In this document: one piece after another, positions 2,906 to 30,067 of the stretch
How the letters are laid out: every line of letters begins with the position of its first letter
Numbering within the stretch: the stretch's first letter is position 1
Origin: Candidatus Hermodarchaeota archaeon
GTDB lineage: Archaea > Asgardarchaeota > Heimdallarchaeia > Hodarchaeales > Hodarchaeaceae
Direction of reading: 5' to 3'
DNA: 32,000 nucleotides
NCBI GenBank assembly: GCA_048886185.1
Contig: JBHLKY010000015.1
Location: 30,001-62,000, forward strand
Position numbers and translations under genes: made by a program
The notes under the pieces: generated by a model
Seen by the model: only the letters and a program-made list of their open reading frames with translations
What the model was told of the DNA's origin: nothing
Databases searched by the model: none

Positions 2906-5221
2906 GTGAGATTAGAGATGCCCCGTAAAATTAGGCCCCAAGACCTTTTCCCAATGGATCGTAAAGTCGAACGGGAAGAAATCTTGGCTGTGAAGCGAGT
3001 TATGCGAAATAAGCGGTTGACTTTTATGAGTGGTACCGAAATTCAAGAATTTGAAAATGCTTTTGCCAGCTACATGAATAGTAAGTATGCTATTGCTGTT
3101 AGTTCTGGTACTGCTGCATTACACGTATCTTTGGCTGCTGCTGGAGTTGGAGCTGGAGATGAGGTTTTAATCCCCCCCTATACCTTTGTGGCTACAGCAA
3201 CAGCTGTCTTACATCAGAATGCCATTCCTATATTCGTTGATATTGATCCTATTACTTTCTGTATGGATCCTACTGATTTAGAAAACAAATTAACAAATCG
3301 GACTAAAGCTATTATACCTGTTCATTTATTTGGACACCCTGCTGATTTAGATTCTCTCCTAGCTTTCGCAAAGAAACATAATCTAGTTCTGATTGAGGAT
3401 GCATGTCAGGCACATGGTGGTGAATACTATGGGAGAAAACTAGGAACATACGGAAAAGCAGGATGCTTCAGTCTATTTGAATCGAAAAATATGATGACAG
3501 GTGAGGGTGGAATGATAATTACAGATGATGAAGACTTTGCAGAGCAATGTCGATTAGTTAGACACCACGGGGAACCATCTTGGTATACATATGAACGATT
3601 AGGATTTAATTATCGGATGACCACAATACAAGCAGCTATTGGATTGGAGCAGTTGAAAAAGCTCGAAACAATGAATGAGGGACGAATCAAGAACTCCAAT
3701 TATTTGAGTTTGTTATTGAAAGATATACCAGGAGTGATTTTACCTCATACTCCCGAAAATGGTAAACATGTTTTCCATGCTTATGCTATTCAGATCGACC
3801 CATCTAAAATTGGTATGAGCGGAAAAGAACTAACTGATCGTCTAAACCGTGACTTTCAGATAACTCAATTAATATACCCAACAGGACTTTATGCTTCTAC
3901 TCTCTTCCAAAAACAAATGGGGTATGGTGAAAGGAAGTGTCCGTTTACATGCCCATTTTTAGAAGGTGAAGTTACTTACACTGATCCTCAGTGTCCTAAT
4001 ACTGATCGAATTGTTGAAAATATAATTGGTTTACCTAATTGGCATCAATTATCCTATATTGAATTATCACTTATCGCAGGAAAATTCTTAGAAGTCTTAG
4101 AGGAGATATTGGACATACCCTTAGGAATTGAGGAACGCATAATAGGTACAATGCTTATGACTGGAACACCCCCCAAAATAAATGAACTCGTTGGCAACAT
4201 TCCAAAGGTAGATAAACCATTAAAAGTAGGTGTCATAGGTTTAGGAGGCATAGGCCGAGTTCATGCAGCTGCTTATGCTGCTAGTCCTTGGACAGATTTG
4301 CATTCTTTTGCCACGAGGAGCTCTATCTCACTTCAAGGAGCAGCACTTTTCTTTGGAGTAAAAAATATCTACGAAGATTATCTAGAGGCACTTAAGGATC
4401 CTGATTTACAGGCAATATCAATTTGCGTTCCAACATTTGCTCATAAGGAGTATATCATTAGTGCAGCAAGAGCAGGGAAACATATCCTATGTGAAAAACC
4501 TCTTTTATTGAACCTAGAGGAATATAACGAGGTTGAATCAGTTATAAAAGAGACAAAGGTTAAATTAATGGTCGCAATGATATGTAGATTCATACCTCAT
4601 TATGCTAAAACAAAAAAAGTAATTGACAAAGGTGAATTAGGTCCATTAGTCAGTTTTTATGCATGCAGACGAAGTCGAGGTCCACCTGCTGCAAAATGGT
4701 TTTGGAATGAAGATGAGAGTGGTGGAATACCTGTTGATCTTGCGATCCATGATATTGATCTTGTTCAGTGGTATCTTGGGCCAAAAGATCCAATTACAAC
4801 TGTTTTTGCAATTGGTTCTAATAATGTGTATCCAGAGATCCAGACTTGGGATACCGTAATGATCACTTTAAAGTCGAAATCTGGCGTTCTCGCCACCATT
4901 GAAGCTTCTTGGACGGCACCCAACCTCACAGACCAGTCAGGTATCAACACATTCATGGTTATTCATGGTGAAGATGGAAGCATTCGAATTGATCCCTCCA
5001 TGCAACCATCAATCAAGAACACGGAACTTGATGGGCCAGAACCAACGTTTGAGGAGACAGATCAGCTCCCTTTCTTTGTAGAACAAGTTAATTCATTTGC
5101 AAAAGCGGTATTAATGGATGAAGAGCCACCCGTTACAATAATTGACGGAATTTTAGCTCTTCGTGTGGCTCGGGCTGCCCTCGAATCACTACAAAGTGGA
5201 AAAGTCATCTATATAATGTAA
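2906..5221 (+). CDS. Fusion: DegT/DnrJ/EryC1/StrS PLP sugar aminotransferase (N-terminal ~400 aa) + Gfo/Idh/MocA NAD-dependent oxidoreductase (C-terminal ~335 aa)
   Basis: SSGTAALH, PPYTFVAT, IEDACQAHG, FSLFESKNMMTGEGG (PLP Lys), GFNYRM; then KVGVIGLGGIG, HILCEKP, DLAIHDIDL. Confidence 0.9.
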   Translation: MRLEMPRKIRPQDLFPMDRKVEREEILAVKRVMRNKRLTFMSGTEIQEFENAFASYMNSKYAIAVSSGTAALHVSLAAAGVGAGDEVLIPPYTFVATATAVLHQNAIPIFVDIDPITFCMDPTDLENKLTNRTKAIIPVHLFGHPADLDSLLAFAKKHNLVLIEDACQAHGGEYYGRKLGTYGKAGCFSLFESKNMMTGEGGMIITDDEDFAEQCRLVRHHGEPSWYTYERLGFNYRMTTIQAAIGLEQLKKLETMNEGRIKNSNYLSLLLKDIPGVILPHTPENGKHVFHAYAIQIDPSKIGMSGKELTDRLNRDFQITQLIYPTGLYASTLFQKQMGYGERKCPFTCPFLEGEVTYTDPQCPNTDRIVENIIGLPNWHQLSYIELSLIAGKFLEVLEEILDIPLGIEERIIGTMLMTGTPPKINELVGNIPKVDKPLKVGVIGLGGIGRVHAAAYAASPWTDLHSFATRSSISLQGAALFFGVKNIYEDYLEALKDPDLQAISICVPTFAHKEYIISAARAGKHILCEKPLLLNLEEYNEVESVIKETKVKLMVAMICRFIPHYAKTKKVIDKGELGPLVSFYACRRSRGPPAAKWFWNEDESGGIPVDLAIHDIDLVQWYLGPKDPITTVFAIGSNNVYPEIQTWDTVMITLKSKSGVLATIEASWTAPNLTDQSGINTFMVIHGEDGSIRIDPSMQPSIKNTELDGPEPTFEETDQLPFFVEQVNSFAKAVLMDEEPPVTIIDGILALRVARAALESLQSGKVIYIM

Positions 5222-6570: not shown

Positions 6571-9039
6571 TTGTGGGTTAAAACCTTGACTTATGCTAAA
6601 CAGATGCTAAGAATTAATTTAAAGACACAAGAAATCATAACTGAACCTTTAAACCTTGAAATTTTACAACAATATCTTGGAGGAAGAGGATACGGTGTTA
6701 AAATTCTGTATGATGAGCTATCACCAGGAATCGACCCACTTGATCCTGATTCGAAATTTGTTATTATGACTGGTCCAATGACTGGAACCACATCTCCAAC
6801 TTCTTCTAGATGGTGTATGATATTCAAAAGTCCTTTAACAGGCCAGACTCTTAATGATACTCACTGTGGTGGCCGATTAGGAATTGAGTTAAAACGTGCT
6901 GGATATGATGGAATTATAATTGAGAATTCATCCAACACTCCTATTTATCTCTTAATAGACGATGGTGACGTTACTATACATGATGCTTCAGGATTATGGG
7001 GTAAAACTATTGATGAAACTGAAGTACAGTTGAAAAAAACTCACAGGAATCATTCCGTTGCAGCTATCGGCCCTGCAGGTGAGAATTTAATTCGGTTTGC
7101 TTGTGTAATTAATGGTACTCGAACAGCTGGAAGAGGGGGAATTGGAGCTGTATGGGGTTCAAAGAAGCTGAAAGCGATTGTTGTTCACGGTTCCCGTAAA
7201 ATAACACCAGTTAATGAGTATGCGTTTAAGAAATATAATAAAAAGTTTTTAGAAATTTTAAAAGGTCATCCAGTGACAGGTACCGGAATGGGTCTGTATG
7301 GTACTCCTATTTTGGTGAATCTTGTCAATAAACATGGTGTTTTTCCTGTTAATAACTATAATTCAGGGATTTTTAAAGAGGTTCGCCAAATTGCTGGTGA
7401 AACACTTAAGGATTACTTAATAAAGAAAAAATCCTGCCGAGGTTGTCCTATTGCTTGTGGTAGGATAATGAAATACAAAGATGTAGAAACTTATGGTCCA
7501 GAATTTGAATCATTATGGGCATTAGGTCCTAATTGCGGAGTTAGCGATATTGAGATCATCTTCAAAGCTAATTCGCTTTGTAACAAATTAGGATTAGACA
7601 CTATATCTACTGGGAACGTAATTGGTTGGTTTATGGAATGTAGTGAAAAAGAAATCATTCCTGAATCAGTAAAATTCGGTGATGGTCAAACATTATTATC
7701 TTTAATTGAAAAAATTGCATACAGGAAAGAGAGAGGTGAGTTATTAGCTAATGGTGTACAAATAGCTTCTAAAAAAGTTGGTTTAGGAGCCGAAAAGTTT
7801 GCATGTCATGTTAAAGGACTTGAGATGCCAGCTTACGATCCAAGGGGAGTAAAAGGTATGGCCCTAAGTTACGCAACTTCAAATAGTGGTGGAACTCACT
7901 TAAAAGCTTACACAGTCATTCAAGAAATTCTCAGCTTACCTCACTTTGTTGATCCGTTCGCTAATGAAGGTAAAGCTGATTTAGTAAAGGTCATGCAAGA
8001 TGTTTTTGCTGTAATTGATTCAGCAGAGTGGTGTAAGTTTACAACAATGGCAGTGTTTACAACGCTCAAATGTGAAGTTGATATATATGCGAAGCTTTTA
8101 ACAACAGCTACGGGTTTTTATATCGATGAAGCAGAGTTCAGGAAAATTGGGGAAAGAATTTACAACTTGGAACGACTGTTTAATATTAGAGAGGGATTGA
8201 CCGAAGAAAGTGACAGTCTTCCTCCAAGATTTTTGAATGACCCAATGCCAGAGGGCCCTGCAAAAGGCCACATTGTAAACCTTGATAATCTTCTAAAAGA
8301 TTATTATCGTATTAGAGGATGGAATGAGCAAGGAATCCCCTCAGATCGTAAATTAGAAGAGCTTGCTATTAAGCCTCTACAGAATTTAAAAAAGCTTCAA
8401 GTAGCATTAGATTTGAGAGATCTTAATGAAGCTATTAAAATCGCTCATAAAAGTGCACTTGGAGGAGTAGATTGGATTGAAGCTGGGACACCATTAATCA
8501 AAGCGAGTGGAATGGAATCTGTACGTAAGCTTCGTGAGCTCTTTCCGAATAAAATAATCGTTGCAGACCTTAAAACTATGGATGCTAGCTTCTTAGAGAC
8601 TGAAATGGCTGCATTAGCTGGGGCTGATATTGTTTGTATTCTTGGAATTGCTCCTGATAGTACTATAGAGGATGCTGTTGGTGCTGGGAAAAAGTTCAAT
8701 GTTAAGATTTTTGCGGATCTAATTGGAATTCAAGATCCTATAAGCCGAGCTGTTCAACTAGAAGAATTGGGGGTCGATATTATTGGATTTCACATAGGTA
8801 TTGATCAACAGCTACGTTCTGGTTTTGATAAAATACCTTTTCCAATTCTTAAGAAATTAAAAGAAACAATTAAGATCCCAATAGCCGTAGCAGGCGGATT
8901 AAAGGCTGAAACAATCCCGCAAGCCATTGAATGTGGGGCAGACATCCTTATAGTTGGTTCAGCAATTACTCGTTCAGCGGATCCTCAAAAAGCCACTCAT
9001 CGCTTTAAAGAAATAATTCTAGCGAGTACAAAAAAATGA
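6571..9039 (+). CDS. Fusion: tungsten-pterin aldehyde:ferredoxin oxidoreductase (aa ~6-600) + 3-hexulose-6-phosphate synthase (aa 608-822); true start probably TTG at 6586
   Basis: AOR motifs: LGGRG, KSPLTG, AGRGGIGAVWGSKKLKAI, CRGCPIACG, GPEFE, GLDTISTG, VKGLEMPAYDPRG, DSAEWC, YYRIRGW. HPS motifs: LQVALD, IEAGTP, ADLKTMD, ADLIG, FHIGID, VAGG, IVGSAIT. Single uninterrupted frame. Confidence 0.92.
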   Translation: MWVKTLTYAKQMLRINLKTQEIITEPLNLEILQQYLGGRGYGVKILYDELSPGIDPLDPDSKFVIMTGPMTGTTSPTSSRWCMIFKSPLTGQTLNDTHCGGRLGIELKRAGYDGIIIENSSNTPIYLLIDDGDVTIHDASGLWGKTIDETEVQLKKTHRNHSVAAIGPAGENLIRFACVINGTRTAGRGGIGAVWGSKKLKAIVVHGSRKITPVNEYAFKKYNKKFLEILKGHPVTGTGMGLYGTPILVNLVNKHGVFPVNNYNSGIFKEVRQIAGETLKDYLIKKKSCRGCPIACGRIMKYKDVETYGPEFESLWALGPNCGVSDIEIIFKANSLCNKLGLDTISTGNVIGWFMECSEKEIIPESVKFGDGQTLLSLIEKIAYRKERGELLANGVQIASKKVGLGAEKFACHVKGLEMPAYDPRGVKGMALSYATSNSGGTHLKAYTVIQEILSLPHFVDPFANEGKADLVKVMQDVFAVIDSAEWCKFTTMAVFTTLKCEVDIYAKLLTTATGFYIDEAEFRKIGERIYNLERLFNIREGLTEESDSLPPRFLNDPMPEGPAKGHIVNLDNLLKDYYRIRGWNEQGIPSDRKLEELAIKPLQNLKKLQVALDLRDLNEAIKIAHKSALGGVDWIEAGTPLIKASGMESVRKLRELFPNKIIVADLKTMDASFLETEMAALAGADIVCILGIAPDSTIEDAVGAGKKFNVKIFADLIGIQDPISRAVQLEELGVDIIGFHIGIDQQLRSGFDKIPFPILKKLKETIKIPIAVAGGLKAETIPQAIECGADILIVGSAITRSADPQKATHRFKEIILASTKK

Positions 9040-9389
9040 TAACAATAGAACTTAATTTTTTTGCGATTTTACAAGCAGTTTTTGGAGATGAGTATCGCAT
9101 CACTATTGAAGAACCAATTCCTTTAATACAACTTCTTGATTTATTCCATTCTAAGGATGGAGAAAAAGGGAGCCATTTTTTTCTTGAAGATGGAGAATTA
9201 AAGAAAGGATTTTCAATACTTATAGATGGACGGAATATTCATGCTTTGGAGGGATTAAACACAATCCTTGAAAAAAATTGCGAAGTATCTTTTTTTCCAA
9301 TAATTGCAGGTGGAATCTTTAATTATTCGATATTAGCATGTTCTTCTTTCATTTCTGTCTCAGTAATGCCAAGATCTAATGCTAATTGA
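9036..9389 (+). CDS. moaD: MoaD/ThiS/SAMP-family ubiquitin-like sulfur carrier with a 24-aa extension after the GG motif
   Basis: LNFFAIL N-terminus, ILIDGRNI, VSFFPIIAGG at aa 84-93; ATGA overlap with the AOR-HPS stop. Confidence 0.8.
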   Translation: MITIELNFFAILQAVFGDEYRITIEEPIPLIQLLDLFHSKDGEKGSHFFLEDGELKKGFSILIDGRNIHALEGLNTILEKNCEVSFFPIIAGGIFNYSILACSSFISVSVMPRSNAN

Positions 9390-10498
9390 GCCACACATGA
9401 ATCTAAGGTTATCGCTGCTGCATACTCGAATGATGGAATTAAAAAACTGAGGTTTGAAATCTGATGTAAGTCAGCACTTATTTCCTCTGTTCTTCCTTCA
9501 ATAGCGAGACATATGTTAGATTCTAAAGCTAATTTTGATTTAGGAAAGGAAGTTAATCCAACTATATTCATTTTAGCTGATTTTGCGCTTTCAATGCGTT
9601 CTAATGTACTCGTAGATACCCCAGAACCCGAAATACCTATCAGTAGATCGCCCTCTCGTCTAAATCTCCAGTCATAATTAGATTTACAATTAATTCTTAA
9701 ATGACTTAATCTAATAGAAGAAATACTAGCAATTATAGAGTCTAGACCACTTCCAAAAACGAATAATTTCTTTTGTGGTTGGCCAGAATAGCTTTCTAGG
9801 GTAGTAATGAAGTGTTGTAAGGGTTGTTCATTCTTTTTAATATTATGTAAACTCATTTCTGCTGCTCGTAATACTTCATTCACTCCTTCATTAAACCCTT
9901 TGACTATCGATTCATCTCGTAATCCTGAAATAACCCCAATTCCTAATAACATTGTTGTCATTTCGAATACTGTTCCAAGAGGTGTTAAAGGTGCGTGAGA
10001 AACAGGCGTTAAGGGGGCATGAGAAATAGGAGCGAACTTCTCTTTTATATAACCCCGAGGGATATGAATAATTGAATCCGCTAATCTTGCTGCTAAAGAT
10101 TGTTGATCACCTGTAAAAACTAGGATTTTTGCGCCTCTACTTATTGATTCTTGCAGAGTATTGATTGTAAACCTTGTCCATCCCGAACCCGTGATTCCAA
10201 TGACCACATCATCCTTTCGAACGGGTTTTGCTAGACTTTTTCCTAAATATGATACCTTACATCCTATATTCTTGAGTAATTCTCCAAGTAACATCCCAAC
10301 TTTCCCTGACCTTCCCATTCCGACGAGATGTATTCTTTTATCTCCTTCTCTTGCTTCGTCGAGTGCCTTACAAAATTCAACCAAGCTAGGTGGATTCTCA
10401 TTGATTGAATTTACAGTCCTTTTAGCTGATTTAACCAAAAGATTAAAAGCTGAATAAAAAGATGACAAATCTTGGGATGGATTAGTTTCCATTGACAT
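9323..10498 (-). CDS. hxlB: 6-phospho-3-hexuloisomerase (PHI/HxlB)-like protein with two tandem SIS domains
   Basis: Domain 1: LVGMGRSG, DVVIGITGSGWT, PLGTVFE. Domain 2: DLLIGISGSG, PSFE and C-terminal EMKEEHANIE (PHI HANLE signature). GGAG SD precedes ATG 10492. Confidence 0.8.
   Translation of the reverse strand: MSMETNPSQDLSSFYSAFNLLVKSAKRTVNSINENPPSLVEFCKALDEAREGDKRIHLVGMGRSGKVGMLLGELLKNIGCKVSYLGKSLAKPVRKDDVVIGITGSGWTRFTINTLQESISRGAKILVFTGDQQSLAARLADSIIHIPRGYIKEKFAPISHAPLTPVSHAPLTPLGTVFEMTTMLLGIGVISGLRDESIVKGFNEGVNEVLRAAEMSLHNIKKNEQPLQHFITTLESYSGQPQKKLFVFGSGLDSIIASISSIRLSHLRINCKSNYDWRFRREGDLLIGISGSGVSTSTLERIESAKSAKMNIVGLTSFPKSKLALESNICLAIEGRTEEISADLHQISNLSFLIPSFEYAAAITLDSCVAQLALDLGITETEMKEEHANIE
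9981..10028. repeat. Imperfect 24-nt tandem duplication inside hxlB encoding (I/V)SHAPLTP twice
   Basis: GGTGTTAAAGGTGCGTGAGAAACA vs GGCGTTAAGGGGGCATGAGAAATA, 19/24 identical. Confidence 0.85.
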
Positions 10499-11886: not shown

Positions 11887-12858
11887 CTATATGGCTAGAT
11901 CACGAAGTAGACTATAGGCATACTCATCTATTTGTTTCTTTTTTCGGGTCTCTTCTAGAGAGATCTTTGTGAGTTCTTTGTTCTGTTCTCCGACCATGAT
12001 ACCAGTATCTCCAGCAAGAATACAATCAATTGCATAAGCACCCAACCGTGTAGCAAGCCATCGGTCTCGTGCGCTGGGAGATCCTCCACGTTGTATGTGA
12101 CCTAATATTGAAATGTAGGTTTTATACTCTAAGTGTTTAGCTAAAGTTTTTGAGAAAGTGAAGATATCGCGATCATCTGCTCCTTCAGCCACAATGACAA
12201 TAAGACTTTTTTTCCCCCGTTCCTTTGCTTCTCGAATACGATTGGCAATAGTTATAAAATCTATCGGTTTATCCTCAGGAATCAATATCTCTTCAGCACC
12301 ACACCCAATACCCACCTCAAGAGCGATAAATCCAGCTTCTCTGCCCATAACTTCTACAAGAAAGACTCGTTCGTGACTTTCCGCGGTATCTCGAATTCTA
12401 TCTAACGCTTGAATTGCGGTGTCAATCGCTGTGTCGTAACCAATAGTGAAATCAGTTCCATAGATGTCATTGTCAATAGTCCCTGGAATGCCGATAATTT
12501 GGCCAGACCAATATTTCTGAAGTTCTATTAAGCCACGAAAAGTACCATCACCCCCAATAGCACACAGAGCATCAAAATTATGTCTTTTTAAGATGTTGGC
12601 TGCTTTCTGAACGCCAGTGTCAGTATAAAACTCCTGTGATCTAGCAGTTCTTATTATTGTGCCTCCTTTTTGGATAATATTGGAAACAGAGCGAGGTGTC
12701 ATTTCTTCAAACTCTTCCTTGAAGATTCCTTCAAAACCTCGATAAATAGCTACCATATCTAGACCTTGTGCAATTCCTCTTCGAACTATAGCACGTAAAC
12801 ACGCGTTCATACCTGGAGCATCTCCACCAGAACAGAAAACTCCAATTTTTTTATTCAA
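11887..12858 (-). CDS. pfkA: ATP-dependent 6-phosphofructokinase, bacterial PfkA type
   Basis: GGDAPGMN, GGTIIRTAR, IGGDGT, PGTIDND, EVMGR, LGHIQRGG; TTG start with GGTGA SD at 12863-12867. Confidence 0.95.
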   Translation of the reverse strand: MNKKIGVFCSGGDAPGMNACLRAIVRRGIAQGLDMVAIYRGFEGIFKEEFEEMTPRSVSNIIQKGGTIIRTARSQEFYTDTGVQKAANILKRHNFDALCAIGGDGTFRGLIELQKYWSGQIIGIPGTIDNDIYGTDFTIGYDTAIDTAIQALDRIRDTAESHERVFLVEVMGREAGFIALEVGIGCGAEEILIPEDKPIDFITIANRIREAKERGKKSLIVIVAEGADDRDIFTFSKTLAKHLEYKTYISILGHIQRGGSPSARDRWLATRLGAYAIDCILAGDTGIMVGEQNKELTKISLEETRKKKQIDEYAYSLLRDLAI

Positions 12859-13741: not shown

Positions 13742-15850
13742 TTATCTACTAGGAATATACGCTTCTATGTATTCTTTGAGCATTCTTCGACCAGAGAATG
13801 CGGGAGTAACACTTTTGATTGAACTTCTAACAATTTCTAACCATCCCGTTGGTATATTTTCACTATCCCTATCATAGAATAATGGTCGTATTTCTTCTTC
13901 TAACGTGTAATAGATTGAATTAGCATCGTGACGATTTCTTTCTTCAATATTATTGAATTCTTGCCCTCCAATCGACCAACCATTTTGGCCATTATAACCT
14001 TCAGGCCACCAACCATCTAAAATTGAGAAGTTGATGCATCCATTAATAGCAGCTTTCATCCCAGATGTTCCTGATGCCTCAAGGGGTTTTCTTGGTGTAT
14101 TAAGCCAAATATCACAACCTTGGACTAGATATCTAGCGACTTGCAGATCGTAGTCCTCGATGAATGCAACACGACCTCCGATAGCTGGGTCAACAGCCTT
14201 CTCGAAGATTTTCTGAAGTACATCTTTCCCAGGATCATCAGCAGGGTGTGCTTTTCCAGCAAAAATAATTTGAATTGGCGTATAACGGTCTAATAGACTT
14301 TTTTTCAGTCTCTCGAGATCATGGAAAATTAAAGATGCTCTTTTATAAGTTGCAAACCTCCTGGCGAAACCAATCGTTAATGCATGAGGATCCAGAAGAG
14401 CACCCGCAGCAATTGTTTGGCGAGAATCTTTATTTTCCTCTGTTCTTTTAACTCTTGCTCTTTCACGAAGGAAAACAAACATTCGGTCTCTTGCTTCCTC
14501 TCTAGCAGCCCATAATTCCCTGTTTGGAATATCATCAATCTTTTCATACAAATCAGGATCATCTTGTCTGGAAAACCAATTTTTTCCAAGATATTTTTTG
14601 TATAATGTTTGGAACGGAATACTTAACCACGTTGGAATATGAACTCCATTAGTAACAAATTGAATTGGTGAGCGATCTCTGAATTCAGGTTGGTTAAAAA
14701 GGCTAGTCCACATATTACGACTAACCTCACAATTGAGTCGTGAAACAGCATTTTGATATCGGCTTAATCTTATTCCAAGTACAGTCATATTGAATCTAGC
14801 ACCTTGGCCATGTCCCCAATCAAATGCACCCAAAGCTAAAAATTCATCACGATTAATCCCCAAACTTTCCCAATAATCTTGGAAGTACTTCGATACCAGC
14901 TCAAAAGAAAATTGATCGTGGCCAGCCTCAACTGGAGTATGGGTCGTAAATATTATTTTATTCCGCACATTCTGTACTGCTTCCTTAAAATTCTTACCAT
15001 TTTCTGTCATTTCTCTTCTAATGAGCTCAAGCCCTACAAATGCGGTATGACCTTCGTTGCAATGATATACTTCTGGATCATAACCAAGATGCGAAAGAAT
15101 CCTTATTGCTCCAAATCCAAGTACAATCTCCTGCCGGATTCTCATCTCTTGATCACCTCCATAAAGTCGGGCAGAGAGCCCACGATTCCATGGTTCATTT
15201 TGATCAATATCAGTATCCATTAGGTAAAGCCGTGTTCTTCCTACTTTTAGATTCCATACTCTTAGAAAAATTGATTTAGGGAACTTTAATTCAATAAACA
15301 ATTGTTTTTTTTCGTTTTCATAAATGGGGTTAATTGGTGTCTGTTCAAATTTCAAATATTCGTACTGTGCTTCTTGCCAGCCATTTCTTAGCATGTTTTG
15401 CTTGAAATAGCCTTGTGGATAGACAAACCCTACTCCCACAATGGGTACTCCTAAATCGCTGCTTTCTTTTACATGATCTCCACTTAGAACTCCCAATCCC
15501 CCCGAATAAATTGGTAATGATTGATGTAATCCGTATTCAGTGCTCACGTATGCGATCTTCCCATTAAAGTTCGGATAATTTTGAGAAAACCAAGTTTCTT
15601 GTAAATCTAATTCGTGATCAAAAGAATGCATAACGCCATCATAATATTTAAGAAAAGCAGGGTTTTGAGAAGCATTGACTAACCGTTTTTTCGGCATAAT
15701 TTGAAGCATTCTAACAGGATTGTGACCAGTATATACCCATAAAGGATGATCCAAGCGTTTGAAAAGCTCACGTGCCTCAGGTTTCCAAGCCCAAATTAGA
15801 TTCTCTGCAAGTTCTCTGAGTCTTTCGATTCGTACTGGTATTTCAAACAT
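13742..15850 (-). CDS. glgP: Alpha-glucan (glycogen/maltodextrin) phosphorylase
   Basis: YSGGLGVLSGD, RLYGG, HCNEGH, FTTHTPVEAGHD, TNGVH, GFARRFATYKR, AGKAHPAD, EASGTSGMK (PLP Lys). Confidence 0.96.
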   Translation of the reverse strand: MFEIPVRIERLRELAENLIWAWKPEARELFKRLDHPLWVYTGHNPVRMLQIMPKKRLVNASQNPAFLKYYDGVMHSFDHELDLQETWFSQNYPNFNGKIAYVSTEYGLHQSLPIYSGGLGVLSGDHVKESSDLGVPIVGVGFVYPQGYFKQNMLRNGWQEAQYEYLKFEQTPINPIYENEKKQLFIELKFPKSIFLRVWNLKVGRTRLYLMDTDIDQNEPWNRGLSARLYGGDQEMRIRQEIVLGFGAIRILSHLGYDPEVYHCNEGHTAFVGLELIRREMTENGKNFKEAVQNVRNKIIFTTHTPVEAGHDQFSFELVSKYFQDYWESLGINRDEFLALGAFDWGHGQGARFNMTVLGIRLSRYQNAVSRLNCEVSRNMWTSLFNQPEFRDRSPIQFVTNGVHIPTWLSIPFQTLYKKYLGKNWFSRQDDPDLYEKIDDIPNRELWAAREEARDRMFVFLRERARVKRTEENKDSRQTIAAGALLDPHALTIGFARRFATYKRASLIFHDLERLKKSLLDRYTPIQIIFAGKAHPADDPGKDVLQKIFEKAVDPAIGGRVAFIEDYDLQVARYLVQGCDIWLNTPRKPLEASGTSGMKAAINGCINFSILDGWWPEGYNGQNGWSIGGQEFNNIEERNRHDANSIYYTLEEEIRPLFYDRDSENIPTGWLEIVRSSIKSVTPAFSGRRMLKEYIEAYIPSR

Positions 15851-18623: not shown

Positions 18624-21600
18624 CTATTTTTTCTTTTTCTTCTCTTTTCTTCTTTTTTCTCGTTCTTCTGGATCCATTAATTTCGTCATATCGTCCAAAA
18701 GCCCATCAAATAAATCCACAAATGCTTCTTGTGTCTTTTCCTCTGAAATTTCAACAGTCGATGTCTCCTGTATAACTGCTGCATGATTTGAAAGTGCAAT
18801 ATACTCTTCTGTCCCAATATGATATTTTGCAGCTGTTTTTAAACAGACGCTTACAATATCACTTAATCCATCCTCATCGTCCAAGTCTTTTAAAATAGTA
18901 GTTGCTTGAGAAATCAAATCCAAGCCTTCATTCACATTCCCTGCCTGAAAACTCAGTTTTGCGGAAGTTACTAGAAATCGTCCTTCTTCTTTCCTTCTAC
19001 CTGACTCTTTAAAGTGCTGAAGAATCTTTGAACGTTCGTTTTGAGCAATTTTTTGTGTTAACGGAGAATTATAAAGTGCTTCATAAATCTCAGCCATTTT
19101 TATACAGTAATAATCGTAACCAGATGGTTCATAATCTTGTAAATGATCTGAAGCTGCTTTTATTAGATTAATACCAGTATCAGTATCCTCTGTTAATAAT
19201 CCACTTCCCACAGCAAAAAACATGTCAGCGAATTCAAACAATGATTCTTCAATCTTTGATTTAGAAGCAATTTTTAATCCTTCTGTCCCCAGTTTAAGAA
19301 CTGCATTAAAATCGCTAATTGATAGATTAAATCTTGTGACATTTAACATAACTTTGAGAACAGATTCAGAATCTCCCACTGTTTTATAAGCGTACGCTGC
19401 TGCTGAATACAGTTCATTCACAGCACGAGGGATCCCTTTCTCAGCATAAAGTGGTATAAAATCCTCTGTGATGGTTTTAGCTATAGTGATTGCAGCATTA
19501 TTATCATTAATTACCTTAGCTTTGTCTATAGCCTGACTCCACATTGTTAAGGCAAGGTCTAATCTGTGTGGAGCGAAGAGTTGAGCGTTGTCTATATACA
19601 AACTAATTGCTTGTGAATGTAATCCTGTTTCATCTAACAGTGAATATAAACCCTCAAGAATTGGCCATGCATCTTCGAATTTCTCATCTGCAATTTTTGG
19701 TTTGATGTTACGATCTAATAAACTAACAACTTGGCCTGTTATCTCATCCCTAACCTCCTTAGGATGTTGTACTCTCTCGAAAGTCTGATCAAGTTGTTTG
19801 AAATAGGCTACTGCATGATCAAAATCCTCTTTGGAAGCGAATCCATCGAAAACTTTCCAGAAGAATGTAATGTATTCTTCAATCTGCCCCATAGTTTCGT
19901 GAAAGGCTAGATTCTGAACTGCCAATTCATATATCTGATTGTGTTGTGAGTCTGAGTATGATTCTGAAATATGATTACTTGTCCATGTAAGAATTTCAGA
20001 GAGTTTTGTGTGATTTGAATCCATGGAATGGAAACCATAAAACGCTTTTACAAGAAAGTTCTTCATTTCATTAAAGAAGTCAAGTCTCTCAGATTCTTCA
20101 GCAAGATTCTGTGTGAACGTAAACAGAAAATTATTGTACATTAACATTTTATCTGCGAATTTAGTGAGAAGTTCTAATTTATGAGCTAATAGAACTTTCT
20201 CAGCAAGAATAGTTGAAGTAAGAGCACGTTCTTGAATGTAGTTAAGGTTTCTTTCAACCAAATCACTAAGTGGTTCATGTTTAACTGAAAATTCTGTTGA
20301 CTTTGTTATTAGTTCTAATGCTTTGTCCATATCACTGTCAATTAAACCAGAACCAATCTTGAAATAAAGATCTGCAGCTTCTTTGAAATCAAACTTCTTT
20401 ATCACTTCAAATGCTTTATCAGCTATGTCAATCCCTAAATTAATTAGTCCTGAATTTAAAGCTTTAAAAGTTGTAGCCTGTAGAAACTTTCCATTAGCCT
20501 GATCAGAAATCGCTGACGTAATTTGATCTCCAAGTTGAATTAATTTGTCTCTTGGTTCTTGAGATTTAGAATCTAAATTAAATAAGGGATCTAATTGTTG
20601 TGTAATATAATCAGTCATTCTCTGGAGTTTTTCAGATGCTTTTACAGATTCAAACGCATCATAAGCTCGTTTTAGAAAATTAATTTCAATGTCTTGCTTT
20701 GCTTGTTGGCCAGCAGCTTTAGCTAGTGAAAAAGCGGAGTCTCCTGCTTCCTCAACCTCTCCAATGAACATTTTGATAGAGATTATACTTCCAAGATGTT
20801 GTGATGCTTGATTGAACTTACCTATTGTAATTAAATTTTTAAAATTTGATTCCAGATAATCAAGAACAACTCGAGTTTGAGATTGATTAGATAGATCCCA
20901 CCAATTTTGAGCACAAAATTCAAAGTAAGGGAGTGATTGTTTTGTTAATTTCTTTTCATACATTGATCGACTATATTGAAAGAGGAAGTTAAGAGTCTTC
21001 TCCAGAATCTCAACATTATTGATTTTTTTTGCTAATTCCATATTTTTTAATAGATAATGAATCCCTTCATTATTTTGAAACTCAATTGGAGCCTTCTTGA
21101 CCATCAATAATCGTGAACTAATAATGCTATTACAGATCTCTGTGCCTTGCTTCTCCAGATAACCTAAAATAGAATTTTGAACTGTAATATCTTCATACTT
21201 TAAAACCGTGTCAAAACTAGAGTCTATAAGAGTGAAAAAGAGATCTCTCTGTTTGAATTCATCGTAAATCATTGCTAATTGCCATAAAAACGGACCAATT
21301 TCTGTGTATTTACCAGCATTTTCAAATCCTGCTTTTGTTGTCTTCACTAAGACGTCTGCAATATTGAATTTTTTATTTCGTGCAACATCTAAAGTTTTTT
21401 TAGCAAAAATATTAGCAATATTCAAAGAAAGAACTTCTGTCGTGTATGGGAGAATATTCTGAGGTTGAGACCGAAAATACTGTAACAAAGTTTCGACATT
21501 TTCAATTCCTTCTATGTGTCTGCCAATATCTATAAGTTTGCTAATTTTGTCAAGTTTGACGTTTAGTATTTTTTCGAGTGATTTAGTATCTAGTCGAATT

Positions 21601-22103
21601 TGTTGAAAAGCTTCGATGGCGCTATCAAACAGATCTAATCCTCTTTGCCACTTTTCTTCCTTCCCTAGAAGATGACTAGTGGATAAAAACTGTTGTCCAT
21701 AAGAAAAAAAGGCATCTCCAGCTTCGTGAGATATTTCATACGCAGCATCAAGATTCCCCACGAGCTGGTACAAAGCAATTGTCCATTCTAACACATCAAG
21801 CATTTCTTCTGGGGAATCCGCTAATCGGTCGCGTTCACGGCCAGAAATCTCTAAAAATGTCGGAATAAGCTCTTTGATTTTTTCTTTTTGATCCTCCTGA
21901 TCTAATAGATCATAGTAAGTTTTTCCCGTTTGGAACATTAGACCAGAATTGCCTGATTTCCTCGCAGTAAAAAATGCTTTATTAAAAAGCCTCAGATCAT
22001 TAGTTAGTTCGGCAGCAGTAAAATAATTACGAGCAGCTTTATCAAAATTCCCTTCATCTTCATTTGCTTTCGCTTTTGATAGCGCTTTTTGAACTTCTGA
22101 CAT
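18624..22103 (-). CDS. 1159-aa all-helical repeat (TPR/SNAP-like alpha-solenoid) protein with a basic C-terminal tail
   Basis: Recurrent helix-pair motifs (KAARNYFTAAE, EAGDAFFSYG, EAGDSAFSLA, EAADLYFKIG, FADMFFAVG); no catalytic motifs; GGGTGA SD at 22109-22114; ends EREKRRKEKKKKK. Confidence 0.7.
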   Translation of the reverse strand: MSEVQKALSKAKANEDEGNFDKAARNYFTAAELTNDLRLFNKAFFTARKSGNSGLMFQTGKTYYDLLDQEDQKEKIKELIPTFLEISGRERDRLADSPEEMLDVLEWTIALYQLVGNLDAAYEISHEAGDAFFSYGQQFLSTSHLLGKEEKWQRGLDLFDSAIEAFQQIRLDTKSLEKILNVKLDKISKLIDIGRHIEGIENVETLLQYFRSQPQNILPYTTEVLSLNIANIFAKKTLDVARNKKFNIADVLVKTTKAGFENAGKYTEIGPFLWQLAMIYDEFKQRDLFFTLIDSSFDTVLKYEDITVQNSILGYLEKQGTEICNSIISSRLLMVKKAPIEFQNNEGIHYLLKNMELAKKINNVEILEKTLNFLFQYSRSMYEKKLTKQSLPYFEFCAQNWWDLSNQSQTRVVLDYLESNFKNLITIGKFNQASQHLGSIISIKMFIGEVEEAGDSAFSLAKAAGQQAKQDIEINFLKRAYDAFESVKASEKLQRMTDYITQQLDPLFNLDSKSQEPRDKLIQLGDQITSAISDQANGKFLQATTFKALNSGLINLGIDIADKAFEVIKKFDFKEAADLYFKIGSGLIDSDMDKALELITKSTEFSVKHEPLSDLVERNLNYIQERALTSTILAEKVLLAHKLELLTKFADKMLMYNNFLFTFTQNLAEESERLDFFNEMKNFLVKAFYGFHSMDSNHTKLSEILTWTSNHISESYSDSQHNQIYELAVQNLAFHETMGQIEEYITFFWKVFDGFASKEDFDHAVAYFKQLDQTFERVQHPKEVRDEITGQVVSLLDRNIKPKIADEKFEDAWPILEGLYSLLDETGLHSQAISLYIDNAQLFAPHRLDLALTMWSQAIDKAKVINDNNAAITIAKTITEDFIPLYAEKGIPRAVNELYSAAAYAYKTVGDSESVLKVMLNVTRFNLSISDFNAVLKLGTEGLKIASKSKIEESLFEFADMFFAVGSGLLTEDTDTGINLIKAASDHLQDYEPSGYDYYCIKMAEIYEALYNSPLTQKIAQNERSKILQHFKESGRRKEEGRFLVTSAKLSFQAGNVNEGLDLISQATTILKDLDDEDGLSDIVSVCLKTAAKYHIGTEEYIALSNHAAVIQETSTVEISEEKTQEAFVDLFDGLLDDMTKLMDPEEREKRRKEKKKKK

Positions 22104-25709: not shown

Positions 25710-28679
25710 TTATAACATTAAATCAAGTCTCTCTTCATATGTAGCTGGCTGTTCACCTTTTGTTTGGACTCCAATTGGATCAGAAATGAGATCTAGTGGG
25801 ATTTGTCCCATTTCATTTCGTATTTCCACATCAAAATAAAGATAACCACAATCTTTTGGTGTTTTAAACTTAATATTTGGGATAATAAATTCATCCCCCG
25901 CATCGATATCTCTTTTAATTTGAAAATTTGCTAGTCGCTTTGTTTGTCCCCCAGGGAGGGTATTTACATTAATTATTATAGTTGCGTAAGGCATTGATTT
26001 TATAAAATGAAAAACAAAGTTCACTTCATACTGTTTTTTTGGCTCCACACCTTCCCAGAGATTCGTCTTTTTTGTTGGGTCTACTGTAAAATTCCAATCA
26101 ACACATATTTCCTTAAGCGGCTTGATCGGGCCTATTGTCTTAAATGACCTATTCTTCTTAAATCGTCCGATCGTGGTTTGAGATACAATGTAAAAAGGAG
26201 TATGTTGGTAATTTATTAATAAATCAATACTCCGGGCTAATTCTAGATTTTCTTTTGGTTTCAAGTTAAATTTAGTATAATATATTGGGACTGGATCTGT
26301 TAAAGTTTGAGTTACGAGAAATACTTCTAGTTCTCCCTTTTCTGAGTCTTTTGATTCGTTGATTGCCTGAAAGATACATTCTACAAGACCATAATTCCCT
26401 GTTACATAAAATTCTTTCGGATTTATTGCTATTTCATCTTTTCGTGTCAAAGTGAATGAGAAGTTTTTTGGAAATAAATTTTCATTTGTTGCTGTAACAG
26501 CCTCCACATCAACTGTTATTTCCCCATATAATTCACCAAGATTAATTGAACATGGAATTTTGGTCATCCCTCTTTCTTCGAGACTTGCTATGTCTATTAA
26601 AGTATTTATCTTAGACTCCACATTATTATCTTTTTCTTTTGCGTTAAATATTAAAGTGACGGGATTATTTCGAAATTTATACATAGCTCGTCTAGTATCG
26701 CGAAAACTAAGTTCAATATATCCAAATACTTCAGATCCAGAAATTAATGCAGGAAAGATTACAGAAACTTTTTTTGGGGAAGGTTTGAAAGCTATACGTT
26801 CTTTTTTGAGGTGTTCGATGAAAAACTTTCGTCTTCTCACTTCTATTTCTTTGCGTCGTGTTCTCATTACATTTGCTATTTTTGATTCAATTTTTTGGTA
26901 TTTAGCTTCAACTTCTATTGTTGGTGAGAAAACCTCAAGATCTTCACTTTCTTCAAAAGCAGATATTTTGATTTCTTCCTTTAATACGTCAACAGGGGGT
27001 GCAGCTAGTTTAGAAACAGTAATATCACTTTTTGCTACTTTCTGTGCTGGCTTAGTTAAAACAGGTGGTTTTTTCACTTCTACTGTGGGTAATATGGCAG
27101 AAGTCTCAACTTTTCTTTTCTTTGGTATTATTCGGGGTACTTCCTTTTTTGATGATTTTGTGGGAGGTTTTTTCTTAGGTTTTTCAGGTACTTTTAGGAC
27201 TGATATTTTCCTCTTAATCAAATCCTCACGTAATGACTGCTGGAGTGCTGATTCTATAGTCTCTATTTCAGTTGAATCCTTTATTTCAACTTGTTGAAGT
27301 GATGAATAATCACCATCAACAATCAATGGGTAACTATTCTCCTTACTGTAAAACAAATTTGGTAAGAATGAAATAGTTTCATCAGATGTTTTGTATAAAG
27401 AAAGTAGGTACTCTGCTACAGTAAGAGGGGGATCATAATCACTGGAGCCAAGAATAGGTAATAATAAATAATTCACCAGCTCCGAATTAAATCCCTCGAG
27501 CTCCTGCTTAACATAAACTAGTAATGATTTTATGGAATGCATCAATTTTGACGCTTTTTTTCCAGTTGTAATATCATAATTGTAAAATTTGGAGAAATTC
27601 CCGGCTAGACTGTCATCAGTGGTAAATTGAGCGAGTAAGCCAAATTGCACAGATTTTCTTCTGTTTTCATAAAGACATCGTGATGCAACTTTTGGGACTT
27701 CTTCATTATTATTAATTAAATTATTAGTTTTCTGTGCAAGAGCTTGAATCAAAAGTACAATTGCCAAGCGGATCTCAGACCAAGGTTGGGCGTCGAAGAA
27801 ACGAATTTCTATTGTGGAGTAATCAGTAAAAGGATATAAATCGACCATTCGGTCGTCTGGAGGAATTTTTCTTACTGATTTGGCGAAATCCATTCTGGTA
27901 GACTTATTGTCTAAGGCTGGTAGATAAGAGGGTATGTTTGGCCCCATTTGACCGCTATTTTTCAGTAATCGGTACGAATGAACACATCTTGCAATAATTT
28001 GCTCTTTCCTGTTGCTTTTTCGAATTAGAACCTCACCGCTTGGTTTTTTATCTAAAAATGGAGAGGTAGTACTAAGCGCAATTAAATGGGGAACATAATT
28101 TCTAAGCATATTGTAGATTGGAATACGTATTTGCTTACTCATCCCAATATGATGATGCTCTCCACAGGTTAATCCACTTCTTACTCTTTTTTCTGTTGGA
28201 TTTAATCCAATTGGGAGTAATGCAACATCAGGGGGAAGGCCTTGAAGGCCTGCAGCAAATAATGTACTAATCCACCAATCCAATTCTTCTAAATATTCAC
28301 ATGGAGGGGTTACCAGCTCAAGTAACCATGTAATTTGCCCAATATTAGGATCAGGACCAAACGCGTTAACTCGGATGATATTTTTCCCGAGCCTATAGTT
28401 TATAAAAATAAATTTTAGGCGTCTTTCTCTTTTAATCTCCTCTTTAACTTCAATTTTGTCGATTTTTTTTAAAATTTCTTTGGGAACGTGCTTATCTTTC
28501 TTCAATTTCTGTAAAAATTCTGCTGCAGCTGAAAACATCTTATCCCATGCGTTAAGAAGTTCGTCACCAACTACTACTTCACCCGTTTTTCGGGATACTA
28601 AATGATTTTCTATTTCGATTCCATGGGTGAAATATAATTTTGTATTCATTGAATAGTCTTTAGCAGTCATGCGAATCAC
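25710..28679 (-). CDS. Glutamate-cysteine-ligase family 2 (GCS2/YbdK-like) carboxylate-amine ligase with a Lys/Pro-rich linker and a beta-rich C-terminal region; true start probably ATG 28670
   Basis: THGIEIENHL, LELVTPP, PIGLNP, TCGEHHHIG, ALSTTSPF, DLYP...TIEIRFFDAQ, ENRRKSVQFG; GGTGA SD at 28676-28680 overlaps the upstream stop. Confidence 0.75.
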   Translation of the reverse strand: MIRMTAKDYSMNTKLYFTHGIEIENHLVSRKTGEVVVGDELLNAWDKMFSAAAEFLQKLKKDKHVPKEILKKIDKIEVKEEIKRERRLKFIFINYRLGKNIIRVNAFGPDPNIGQITWLLELVTPPCEYLEELDWWISTLFAAGLQGLPPDVALLPIGLNPTEKRVRSGLTCGEHHHIGMSKQIRIPIYNMLRNYVPHLIALSTTSPFLDKKPSGEVLIRKSNRKEQIIARCVHSYRLLKNSGQMGPNIPSYLPALDNKSTRMDFAKSVRKIPPDDRMVDLYPFTDYSTIEIRFFDAQPWSEIRLAIVLLIQALAQKTNNLINNNEEVPKVASRCLYENRRKSVQFGLLAQFTTDDSLAGNFSKFYNYDITTGKKASKLMHSIKSLLVYVKQELEGFNSELVNYLLLPILGSSDYDPPLTVAEYLLSLYKTSDETISFLPNLFYSKENSYPLIVDGDYSSLQQVEIKDSTEIETIESALQQSLREDLIKRKISVLKVPEKPKKKPPTKSSKKEVPRIIPKKRKVETSAILPTVEVKKPPVLTKPAQKVAKSDITVSKLAAPPVDVLKEEIKISAFEESEDLEVFSPTIEVEAKYQKIESKIANVMRTRRKEIEVRRRKFFIEHLKKERIAFKPSPKKVSVIFPALISGSEVFGYIELSFRDTRRAMYKFRNNPVTLIFNAKEKDNNVESKINTLIDIASLEERGMTKIPCSINLGELYGEITVDVEAVTATNENLFPKNFSFTLTRKDEIAINPKEFYVTGNYGLVECIFQAINESKDSEKGELEVFLVTQTLTDPVPIYYTKFNLKPKENLELARSIDLLINYQHTPFYIVSQTTIGRFKKNRSFKTIGPIKPLKEICVDWNFTVDPTKKTNLWEGVEPKKQYEVNFVFHFIKSMPYATIIINVNTLPGGQTKRLANFQIKRDIDAGDEFIIPNIKFKTPKDCGYLYFDVEIRNEMGQIPLDLISDPIGVQTKGEQPATYEERLDLML

Positions 28680-30067
28680 CCATTAAACAACTCAAGAAAT
28701 GTTTTTTCTTTTAAACGTGGTCTTTTTCTTCGCGATTTAGAGAATAATTCAACAGGCTTTAACAATTTGATGGATAAATCATTAATTCTATCGACATTTG
28801 ATATTGGATTAAGATTGATATTTTGATATTCATTCTTTGTCTCAAGGGTGTAAGATATCCTTTGATCTAATTTACCAACCGTTAGAACTTGAATTGATAG
28901 ATCTTTATTACATGGTTTAGCAAGATCCAGACTTCCAATATTATTCTCTTTTGTTAATAATTCTTTTAGATTTGATTGTAAGACTGATAAGGTTGTTGAA
29001 TACCCTTTTGAGCTTTTTTTCGTCGAAGAACTGTCCTTTGTAAACCATAAAGGAGGGATAATTCCTAGAGCATTAGCACCAAGTATTTTTGCTGCCAAAG
29101 TTAATATTTCAGTATCTGACCCATTATTTTCTGCAAGCTCTTTGAATTTCCATGATAATAAAAAAGTAATGAAATCCGCTGCTTGTAAGACACCAAAATA
29201 GTTTGAATCTGTACCAAAAAGTATTTTCTGTTCCCATCCATTTACATTTACAATATTTTTGAAAAAAATCTCTATGTCTTTACCCCTCATCCCTGATGTT
29301 TCCGCAAACATATTATTTTTTGATAAACATTCAAAAATTTCTTCCGAGTTATAATCAAAAGCAGAGTGACCTAAGATAACATTTATAGGAAAATCAACTT
29401 CTTGTCGTGCTTCTTCGGCAATTGCGGTGATATCAACAGCTACCCCCTTATTAGGTACATCAAAGATAATTGGTATAGATAAATTACCAGCTATTCGTAA
29501 AACATCTTTGCAATCAGGTGAAATAATCTTCTCAATCCAACCTTGAGACATTGGGTGAAGTTTTAATCCTCTCATTCCTGAACTAATAGAGTTCTTAACT
29601 TCTTCAGCAGCTCCTTCATCTGTTACATCTATCCTACAAAACGGAATAAATCGAAAAGAAAAGTCAAAGGTCTGAGTTTGATGCCGCACATATTGATTAC
29701 TTTTAATAAATTTTGGAGATGTCTTTGTATGAAAAATGTCGTTGAAAGGAAAGCAAACAATATGATCTACGATCCATCCTCGGCTTTTTGTGCCATTTAA
29801 TTCTAATAACTTTTGTACAACAGGGAGTAAAGGTCTTGAAAGTTCTTCTGCTTTAGGAAGAGTAACGAAATATTCTGACTGGTTCTGTGAAATACGTCTA
29901 TGTATTTCGTACTGCAATTTTTCATAAAGATTGATTATATCTTGAGGGCGATTTACTCTTTGAGAGGCTCCTTTAGTAGTTTCAATCTTGACTCTACCTA
30001 TATGAGTGTGAAAATCAACAAGAGGAAGATGAAATGGTGAACCCTGTTCGTCTAAAACAACAATCAT
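28676..30067 (-). CDS. Metal-dependent amidohydrolase (Amidohydro_2 TIM barrel) with an insertion and a C-terminal extra domain
   Basis: VDFHTHIG, GLKLHP, VILGHS, AETSG, ILFGTDS metal-binding motifs. Confidence 0.85.
   Translation of the reverse strand: MIVVLDEQGSPFHLPLVDFHTHIGRVKIETTKGASQRVNRPQDIINLYEKLQYEIHRRISQNQSEYFVTLPKAEELSRPLLPVVQKLLELNGTKSRGWIVDHIVCFPFNDIFHTKTSPKFIKSNQYVRHQTQTFDFSFRFIPFCRIDVTDEGAAEEVKNSISSGMRGLKLHPMSQGWIEKIISPDCKDVLRIAGNLSIPIIFDVPNKGVAVDITAIAEEARQEVDFPINVILGHSAFDYNSEEIFECLSKNNMFAETSGMRGKDIEIFFKNIVNVNGWEQKILFGTDSNYFGVLQAADFITFLLSWKFKELAENNGSDTEILTLAAKILGANALGIIPPLWFTKDSSSTKKSSKGYSTTLSVLQSNLKELLTKENNIGSLDLAKPCNKDLSIQVLTVGKLDQRISYTLETKNEYQNINLNPISNVDRINDLSIKLLKPVELFSKSRRKRPRLKEKTFLELFNG

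Follow-up and report, generated by a model that had tools for sequence, protein, structure and literature searches.

Many archaea make pentoses by running the ribulose monophosphate (RuMP) pathway backward, and one formaldehyde is freed for each pentose made. The retro-aldol step is reversible and is disfavoured unless formaldehyde is kept low. To our knowledge, proposals for the formaldehyde sink in archaea without tetrahydromethanopterin (H4MPT) have not gone beyond guesses, in which the role falls to separate tungsten oxidoreductases. Here, we analyse a gene, aor-hps, in which a tungsten-type aldehyde:ferredoxin oxidoreductase (AOR) is fused in frame to HPS (3-hexulose-6-phosphate synthase). 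It lies in a 32,000-nucleotide stretch of DNA from a Candidatus Hermodarchaeota archaeon (assembly GCA_048886185.1, contig JBHLKY010000015.1, positions 30,001 to 62,000), hereafter the window, from whose first letter all positions are counted. The covalent link between HPS and an AOR-type enzyme has been kept in three archaeal phyla. It is the strongest genomic pointer yet to oxidation as the sink, and the fusion probably shows how these cells dispose of the formaldehyde released in pentose synthesis.

Two described HPS fusions come closest. In Fae-HPS (NF009833; M. hungatei Mhun1628, M. barkeri), found in methanogens and other users of H4MPT, HPS is likewise joined to a partner that takes formaldehyde. 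The formaldehyde-activating enzyme (Fae) is thought to "immediately capture formaldehyde" from ribulose 5-phosphate (Ru5P) synthesis by the reverse RuMP or the reductive hexulose phosphate (RHP) route (PMC5241800). As the logic is the same, Fae-HPS is a fusion precedent for formaldehyde handling beside HPS. In our case, however, the partner is an N-terminal tungstopterin/[4Fe-4S] oxidoreductase of 600 amino acids (aa) rather than the Fae hydro-lyase, and formaldehyde would be disposed of by oxidising it to formate and reducing ferredoxin rather than by condensation with H4MPT. The HPS-PHI protein of Thermococcales (NF041755; P. horikoshii, T. kodakarensis; 9lj9), in which HPS is joined to 6-phospho-3-hexuloisomerase (PHI), is closest to the HPS domain in both structure and sequence (219 bits). 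It supplies Ru5P in archaea without a pentose phosphate pathway (PMC3189178), a role that the fusion may share. In Thermococcales the partner is a C-terminal PHI and the formaldehyde sink is not in the protein, whereas here the PHI-like protein is encoded by a separate, tandem-duplicated gene. Another HPS fusion, HPS-RraA/MenG-like (NF005442; M. hungatei Mhun0647), measures about 440-470 aa and is common in Asgard archaea; its partner, unlike ours, is not an oxidoreductase and has no known function.

On the oxidoreductase side, known AORs are stand-alone 65-kDa subunits or occur with ferredoxin-like or FAD partner subunits, and we know of none that carries an aldolase domain. The closest relative of the N-terminal 600 residues is the P. 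furiosus enzyme (1aor), an AOR sensu stricto, and its cluster, pterin, and second-shell residues are conserved in the fusion. In contrast to the known AORs, the fused domains form a clade of their own. A full-text search across some 8.4 million papers and preprints returned no description of the AOR-HPS architecture, and papers that cover HPS/PHI and AFOR in archaea (e.g., PMC8065059) treat them as separate proteins. The fusion thus appears to be previously undescribed, in keeping with a sequence-only reading of the window, which had named no earlier description of it.

Domain architecture of the fusion protein

Positions 6571-9039 on the forward strand form one stop-free frame of 822 codons. 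The sequence-only reading had taken this whole extent as the gene; the open frame holds, while the start is probably the TTG at 6586 (gene at 6586..9039, +), as the database copy of the protein, P0002, is 817 aa long and 100% identical, and its N terminus aligns with the consensus of homologues. Residue numbers given below for both domains refer to the 822-codon frame opening at 6571. In order, all on the forward strand, the frame encodes an AFOR_N domain (residues 11-207, 6601..7191; Pfam PF02730, 252.5 bits), AFOR_C domains 2 and 3 (residues 222-600, 7234..8370; PF01314, 461.3 bits), both above their Pfam cut-offs, a 7-aa linker, KPLQNLK (8371..8391), and an HPS barrel (residues 608-816, 8392..9018). 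The barrel matches the NCBIfam model TIGR03128 (RuMP_HxlA) at 213.4 bits, over the curated equivalog-domain cut-off of 200, and Pfam OMPdecase at residues 608-811 with 118 bits. Pfam thus places AFOR_N, AFOR_C, and OMPdecase in a single protein read from a single open frame, which bears out the proposed in-frame fusion, and the end of the AOR part given there (...RKLEELAI at nucleotide 8370) and the 7-aa linker both hold. The linker runs directly into the first strand of the HPS barrel.

The NCBI entries for the 817-aa proteins are named either "3-hexulose-6-phosphate synthase" or "aldehyde ferredoxin oxidoreductase." Among the PDB matches of either domain there was no solved structure that contains both AOR and HPS. 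An AlphaFold2 (AF2) model of the full-length protein had a mean pLDDT of 92.7 and a pTM of 0.90, and this model confidence fits a defined relative placement of the two domains. A complex prediction with the AOR part (residues 12-603) and the HPS part (residues 604-822) as separate chains with separate alignments scored 0.00 and was uninformative either way.

The fusion is not an assembly artefact

A trivial explanation would be that assembly or annotation wrongly joined two neighbouring genes. Logan contigs from four sediment-metagenome runs span positions 8370-8400 with zero differences, so that the junction is bridged identically in each; these runs share a study, and the window may itself derive from their samples. 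An artefact is contradicted more strongly by the recurrence of this fusion in more than 100 independent protein clusters from other assemblies (NCBI, JGI, ENA, and Logan), with closed genomes among them, including one of 4.9 Mb. The distance between the two domains is conserved as well: from the invariant L598, the last of the AOR part, to the invariant Q610, the first of the HPS part, there are 11 residues in 80 of 85 aligned proteins and 12 in the remaining 5. Nothing was found that favours a spurious join. We therefore regard the fusion as confirmed, and the chance of such a join as negligible.

Split genes in independent relatives would also have spoken against the fusion; the relatives we found are fused. 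One apparent exception, a "standalone HPS" (P0291) nested among the fused sequences, is a gene-calling error: the miscalled gene sits in an open frame of 850 aa, whose full length can be aligned with a fused protein. Similarly, an "unfused" AOR that fell within the fused clade (P0141) proved to be a C-terminally truncated fragment. Miscalls such as that of P0291 conceal the fusion in databases. In a Verstraetearchaeota assembly (L025, 3153-5705), for example, an intact 850-aa aor-hps frame is present, and only its last 234 aa are called, as a "DUF561 domain-containing protein."

Conservation, distribution, and evolution

Conservation was read from an alignment of 85 fused proteins, all full-length and with identities as low as 48%. 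Invariant in 85/85 were, on the AOR side, the cluster ligands C289, C292, C296, and C488, the pterin aspartates D343 and D483, and the second-shell residues T245, E313, Y422, and H443, and, on the HPS side, D614, E637, D666, K668, D671, D716, H741, and A774. Among the listed residues of either domain, I744 alone was merely near-invariant.

By source names, the fusion occurs in Hodarchaeales, Heimdallarchaeota, and other Asgard archaea at 66-85% identity, in Thermoplasmata at about 55-60%, and in Methanomethylicaceae, Nezhaarchaeales, and other Thermoprotei at about 50%; Bathyarchaeia contributed partial sequences. It is thus conserved across three archaeal phyla. In a survey of 400 Asgard genomes, 11-13 of the 22 that belong to the window's genus (its own genome counted) carried it, as did members of three other genera, g39 (3 genomes), g6 (1), and g67 (1); HPS-RraA-like proteins of about 450 aa or standalone HPS were seen in other Asgard archaea. 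In 15 of the 16 Asgard genomes with an intact fusion, the fusion was the only HPS match.

When the AOR domain was searched against 1.84 billion representative proteins, the top two matches were fused (681 and 672 bits) and the next, an unfused one, scored 552 bits. A tree built from 101 AOR domains gathered the 39 fused ones, without exception, into a single clade (SH-aLRT 99), which held no true unfused member and none of the 12 other AOR paralogues of the genome. The HPS tree has the fused domains grouped at one end, in the same three subgroups, and one genuine standalone HPS (P0286) close to one of the fused subgroups. The simplest reading of these trees would be a single origin of the fusion, followed by evolution as one unit and a patchy spread.

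Some variants of the architecture were also seen. Three proteins of about 990 aa (P0035, P0037, and P0041) carry a partial duplicate HPS barrel between the AOR and the full HPS; the duplicate has 40% identity over about five-eighths of the barrel, with its first Asp replaced by Asn. In a single-contig congener, 70% complete (L030, G065:C1:1041000-1052500), aor-hps is broken within the HPS barrel by about 6.2 kb that encode a 604-aa unknown protein, a PIN protein, eIF2-gamma, and a P-type ATPase, which is either a rearrangement or a misassembly. Finally, P0224 (1026 aa) has an iron alcohol dehydrogenase N-terminal to its AOR, and is thus a second fusion of an aldehyde producer with a tungsten-type aldehyde oxidoreductase.

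The HPS domain

The identity of the C-terminal domain is well constrained by comparison with curated models. Its TIGR03128 score is in line with those of 11 congeners (211-222 bits), which upholds the claim of a full HPS barrel, and its PDB matches include the HPS half of HPS-PHI (9lj9) and M. gastri HPS (3ajx, 151 bits). The Fae-HPS model NF009833 gave 145.6 bits against a cut-off of 274, and the HPS-PHI model NF041755 gave 209.7 against a cut-off of 500, with the HPS half alone matching; these and the models for 3-keto-L-gulonate 6-phosphate decarboxylase (KGPDC) all scored far under their own cut-offs.

The catalytic set of the OMPDC suprafamily is present, namely the Mg-ligand glutamate E637, D666-x-K668-x-x-D671, and H741, and the barrel also has D614. 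Alignment to the HPS-like triple mutant of KGPDC (1xbx) places D716, I744, and A774 at KGPDC positions 112, 139, and 169, which confirms that the domain carries the HPS-type residues Asp, Ile, and Ala at the specificity positions, as had been read from the sequence. The domain also scored higher against this triple mutant (82.3 bits) than against wild-type KGPDC (76.0 bits).

The AOR domain

For the N-terminal 600 residues, the best PDB match was P. furiosus AOR (1aor, 527 bits), followed by the AORs 9g7j, 9mqx, and 8c0z; formaldehyde ferredoxin oxidoreductase (FOR, 1b25) scored 347 bits and WOR5 197 bits. Because 1aor outscores 1b25 by this much, the domain is classed by sequence as AOR sensu stricto and not as FOR. 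The [4Fe-4S] ligands C289, C292, C296, and C488 align with P. furiosus C288, C291, C295, and C494, the pterin aspartates D343 and D483 align with their 1aor counterparts, and T245, E313, Y422, and H443 correspond to Thr243, Glu313, Tyr427, and His448. The second-shell residues are listed as catalytic in a review of AORs, which also gives the roles of the cluster and pterin residues (PMC12096430). The motifs first read as a complete AOR, CxxCxxxC (C289/C292/C296) and DSAEWC (D483...C488), are thus in place, and so are all the cluster, pterin, and second-shell residues.

The idea of a tungsten enzyme that oxidises formaldehyde therefore stands as far as an intact predicted active site is concerned, and it does not stand as a placement in the FOR family, since the domain belongs with AOR sensu stricto. 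As the real substrate of FOR may itself not be formaldehyde (PMC12096430), this placement does not speak against the oxidation of formaldehyde.

It could be argued instead that the AOR domain acts on some other aldehyde, such as glycolaldehyde, glyceraldehyde, or an amino-acid-derived aldehyde, and that the fusion reflects regulation or assembly with no shared intermediate. The domain does group by sequence with broad-spectrum AORs, and the 13 AOR-family genes of the genome, the fusion included, suggest a diverse aldehyde metabolism. However, an exclusive clade of fused AORs that co-evolved with HPS over three phyla would not be expected without a functional link, and formaldehyde is the only aldehyde that HPS releases. 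We consider such an unrelated substrate quite unlikely.

A predicted bifunctional reverse-RuMP enzyme

The reading that we favour, and hold to be somewhat probable, is that of a bifunctional enzyme of the reverse RuMP route, in which fructose 6-phosphate (F6P) would give hexulose 6-phosphate and then Ru5P and formaldehyde, the latter being oxidised on the same polypeptide to formate with reduction of ferredoxin. In the first step, the PHI-like protein encoded next to the fusion would convert F6P to D-arabino-3-hexulose 6-phosphate. The C-terminal HPS barrel would then split this compound into Ru5P and formaldehyde, and the N-terminal tungstopterin/[4Fe-4S] domain would oxidise formaldehyde to formate, passing two electrons to ferredoxin. 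The predicted net reaction, F6P to Ru5P, formate, and 2 reduced ferredoxin, would make the enzyme a ferredoxin-linked counterpart of the oxidative branch of the pentose phosphate pathway. Formaldehyde oxidation would both remove a toxic product and exert a pull on the unfavourable retro-aldol step. What we infer here from the sequence and its context is the flux direction, the oxidation of formaldehyde by the AOR, the role of ferredoxin as acceptor, and any direct hand-over between the sites. The evidence supports the proposal made in the sequence-only reading, none of whose refuting conditions that can be checked in silico applied, and the mechanism would fit a proposal that reverse RuMP was a source of reducing power in Asgard ancestors (PMC10307638).

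The gene content of the genome bears on the direction of flux. The assembly (G000) is 4.84 Mb and 96% complete. Profile searches of this genome found no transketolase, transaldolase, or classical glucose-6-phosphate dehydrogenase, and across the genus transketolase is missing as well, save for one match at a contig end in a 9%-contaminated bin. Without transketolase and transaldolase, a cyclic, assimilatory RuMP pathway could not regenerate Ru5P, which makes a forward assimilatory cycle unlikely. No Fae was found in the protein or the genome, and the H4MPT sink for formaldehyde is missing. The genome holds two OMPdecase-family genes, the fusion and a 261-aa gene that, by length and family alone, we take to be PyrF; with that assignment, the fusion is the only HPS of the genome. 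Three genes resemble the large subunit of RuBisCO. Phosphoribulokinase (PRK), looked for with the RuBisCO/PRK "RHP" cycle in mind, had no match above cut-off in the genome.

These data also bear on a dual-sink detoxification system, in which HPS would fix external or metabolic formaldehyde onto Ru5P by forward RuMP, the AOR would oxidise the excess, and the fusion would serve co-expression only. In bacteria, HPS and PHI do serve to detoxify formaldehyde, archaeal HPS and AFOR have been interpreted likewise in metagenomic papers (PMC8065059), and the 6-phosphogluconate dehydrogenase (6PGD) gene of the genome could supply the Ru5P. Nevertheless, two competitors for one substrate would gain little from a fixed 7-aa linker kept across wide divergence. 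Moreover, with the fusion as the only HPS and no transketolase or transaldolase, reverse RuMP would be needed for pentoses unless 6PGD serves, and no methylotrophy genes were seen in the window, although none were searched for. On this evidence, we judge the dual-sink explanation unlikely.

The opposite direction has also to be weighed, that is, a reductive assimilation of formate in which the AOR would run in reverse, reducing formate to formaldehyde with low-potential ferredoxin, and HPS would condense the product with Ru5P to hexose phosphate. AORs can reduce acids with low-potential donors (PMC9295118), and on established thermodynamic grounds the exergonic aldol condensation could pull this reduction. 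Against this, Ru5P could not be regenerated from F6P without transketolase and transaldolase, hence there would be no assimilatory cycle; no formate uptake channel was found in the genome; and the neighbouring genes for phosphofructokinase and glycogen phosphorylase fit hexose breakdown. Formate assimilation thus appears very unlikely.

Several observations weigh against the bifunctional reverse-RuMP enzyme that we favour. By family, the AOR domain is nearer the broad-spectrum AORs than FOR; family membership does not point to formaldehyde specificity, nor can such specificity be read from the sequence of the domain. A strong, intact 6PGD gene is present (on contig C10), and part of an oxidative pentose phosphate pathway has been reported in Heimdallarchaeia (PMC10307638), so that Ru5P may have a second source. 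For the proposed product, no formate dehydrogenase (FdhA) above cut-off, no formate-tetrahydrofolate ligase (FTHFS), and no FNT formate channel were found in the genome with the models used, although at 96% completeness their absence is not proven. No PHI-like neighbour was found within 6 kb of the fusion in the Nezhaarchaeales and Methanomethylicia loci, and a sequencing-run search listed no RNA runs holding the stretch of the window. Apart from the intact gene, two 6PGD fragments with internal stops lie at C3:92733-94971.

If the reverse-RuMP enzyme acts as proposed, pentose synthesis would yield formate and reduced ferredoxin, which would bear on models of Asgard fermentation and syntrophy. 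For the tungsten-enzyme family this would mean a further physiological substrate and a domain architecture not known there before, and for synthetic C1 metabolism a natural module for handling formaldehyde. The idea is testable with one recombinant protein. A more tentative extension, which we regard as possible and somewhat doubtful, is true channelling, in which the HPS barrel would hand formaldehyde on to the tungsten site and the cytoplasm would be bypassed. The fusion would then be central to a ferredoxin-linked "oxidative pentose pathway" in anaerobic archaea. The C1 unit would leave as formate rather than CO2, and the electrons would be kept as reduced ferredoxin rather than NADPH. Channelling would also answer where the formaldehyde of reverse RuMP goes in archaea without H4MPT, and would provide an enzyme for the reducing power that reverse RuMP has been proposed to supply in Asgard ancestors.

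Genomic neighbourhood of aor-hps

Downstream of the fusion, a gene at 9036..9389 (+) encodes a small MoaD/ThiS-like protein (Pfam ThiS; the NCBIfam models SAMP1 and moaD_arch matched below cut-off), and its start overlaps the stop of aor-hps by 4 nucleotides. ThiS-family genes adjoin the fusion in other loci as well (L022, L023, and L027), including loci of Nezhaarchaeales and Methanomethylicia, such that a MoaD-like neighbour is found in three lineages. The adjoining MoaD-like gene suits the presence of a predicted active pterin enzyme. The protein has a 24-aa extension past its ...AGG motif (6 aa in L022), and a role as sulfur carrier would call for processing of its C terminus, unless the extension is a read-through.

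Convergent with the fusion, a gene at 9323..10498 (-) encodes a 391-aa protein with two SIS domains. The PHIs known so far have one domain and measure about 180-200 aa, and here TIGR03127 (RuMP_HxlB) is the best model for both halves, with 126.8 bits summed over the two against a cut-off of 160. Of its six PDB matches, the best five are PHI or PHI-like (the PHI half of 9lj9, 1vim, 1jeo, 1m3s, and 1viv). This is the best PHI-like gene of the genome, which also has a second paralogue at C5:22666-23658. PHI-like neighbours of the fusion were seen in Hodarchaeales and in one Thermoplasmata-like locus.

In 8 genomes of the genus the fusion is absent, and a standalone, divergent HPS-like gene (117-126 bits) is found instead. 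The locus was read in one of these 8, G058, where the HPS-like gene, with 34% identity to the fused HPS domain and its motifs kept, is convergent with an orthologous tandem PHI-like gene that is 68% identical to that of the window. In the two loci compared, the HPS slot beside a conserved PHI anchor thus holds a plain HPS in one case and AOR-HPS with MoaD in the other. The shared PHI anchor ties the fusion to the RuMP pair, and the arrangement suggests an in situ replacement at the HPS slot. Another congener (G072; L031, 3955-4620) has, besides the fusion, a very divergent 221-aa OMPdecase-family gene, flanked by moaD and the PHI-like gene.

Farther along, two genes recognised by domain or family matches give metabolic context: an ATP-dependent 6-phosphofructokinase (11887..12858, -), which acts on the same F6P pool, and a glycogen/alpha-glucan phosphorylase (13742..15850, -), which relates to hexose phosphate supply. 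Three large open reading frames on the reverse strand, at 18624-22103 (1159 aa), 25710-28679 (989 aa), and 28676-30067 (463 aa), matched no Pfam family or matched one marginally. Upstream of aor-hps, at 2906-5221 (+), lies a fusion of a different kind, a 771-aa protein that joins a DegT/DnrJ/EryC1 sugar aminotransferase to a GFO/IDH/MocA oxidoreductase. It is kept in a related closed genome (L022, 2430-4730) and could carry out two successive steps of amino-sugar synthesis in one chain.

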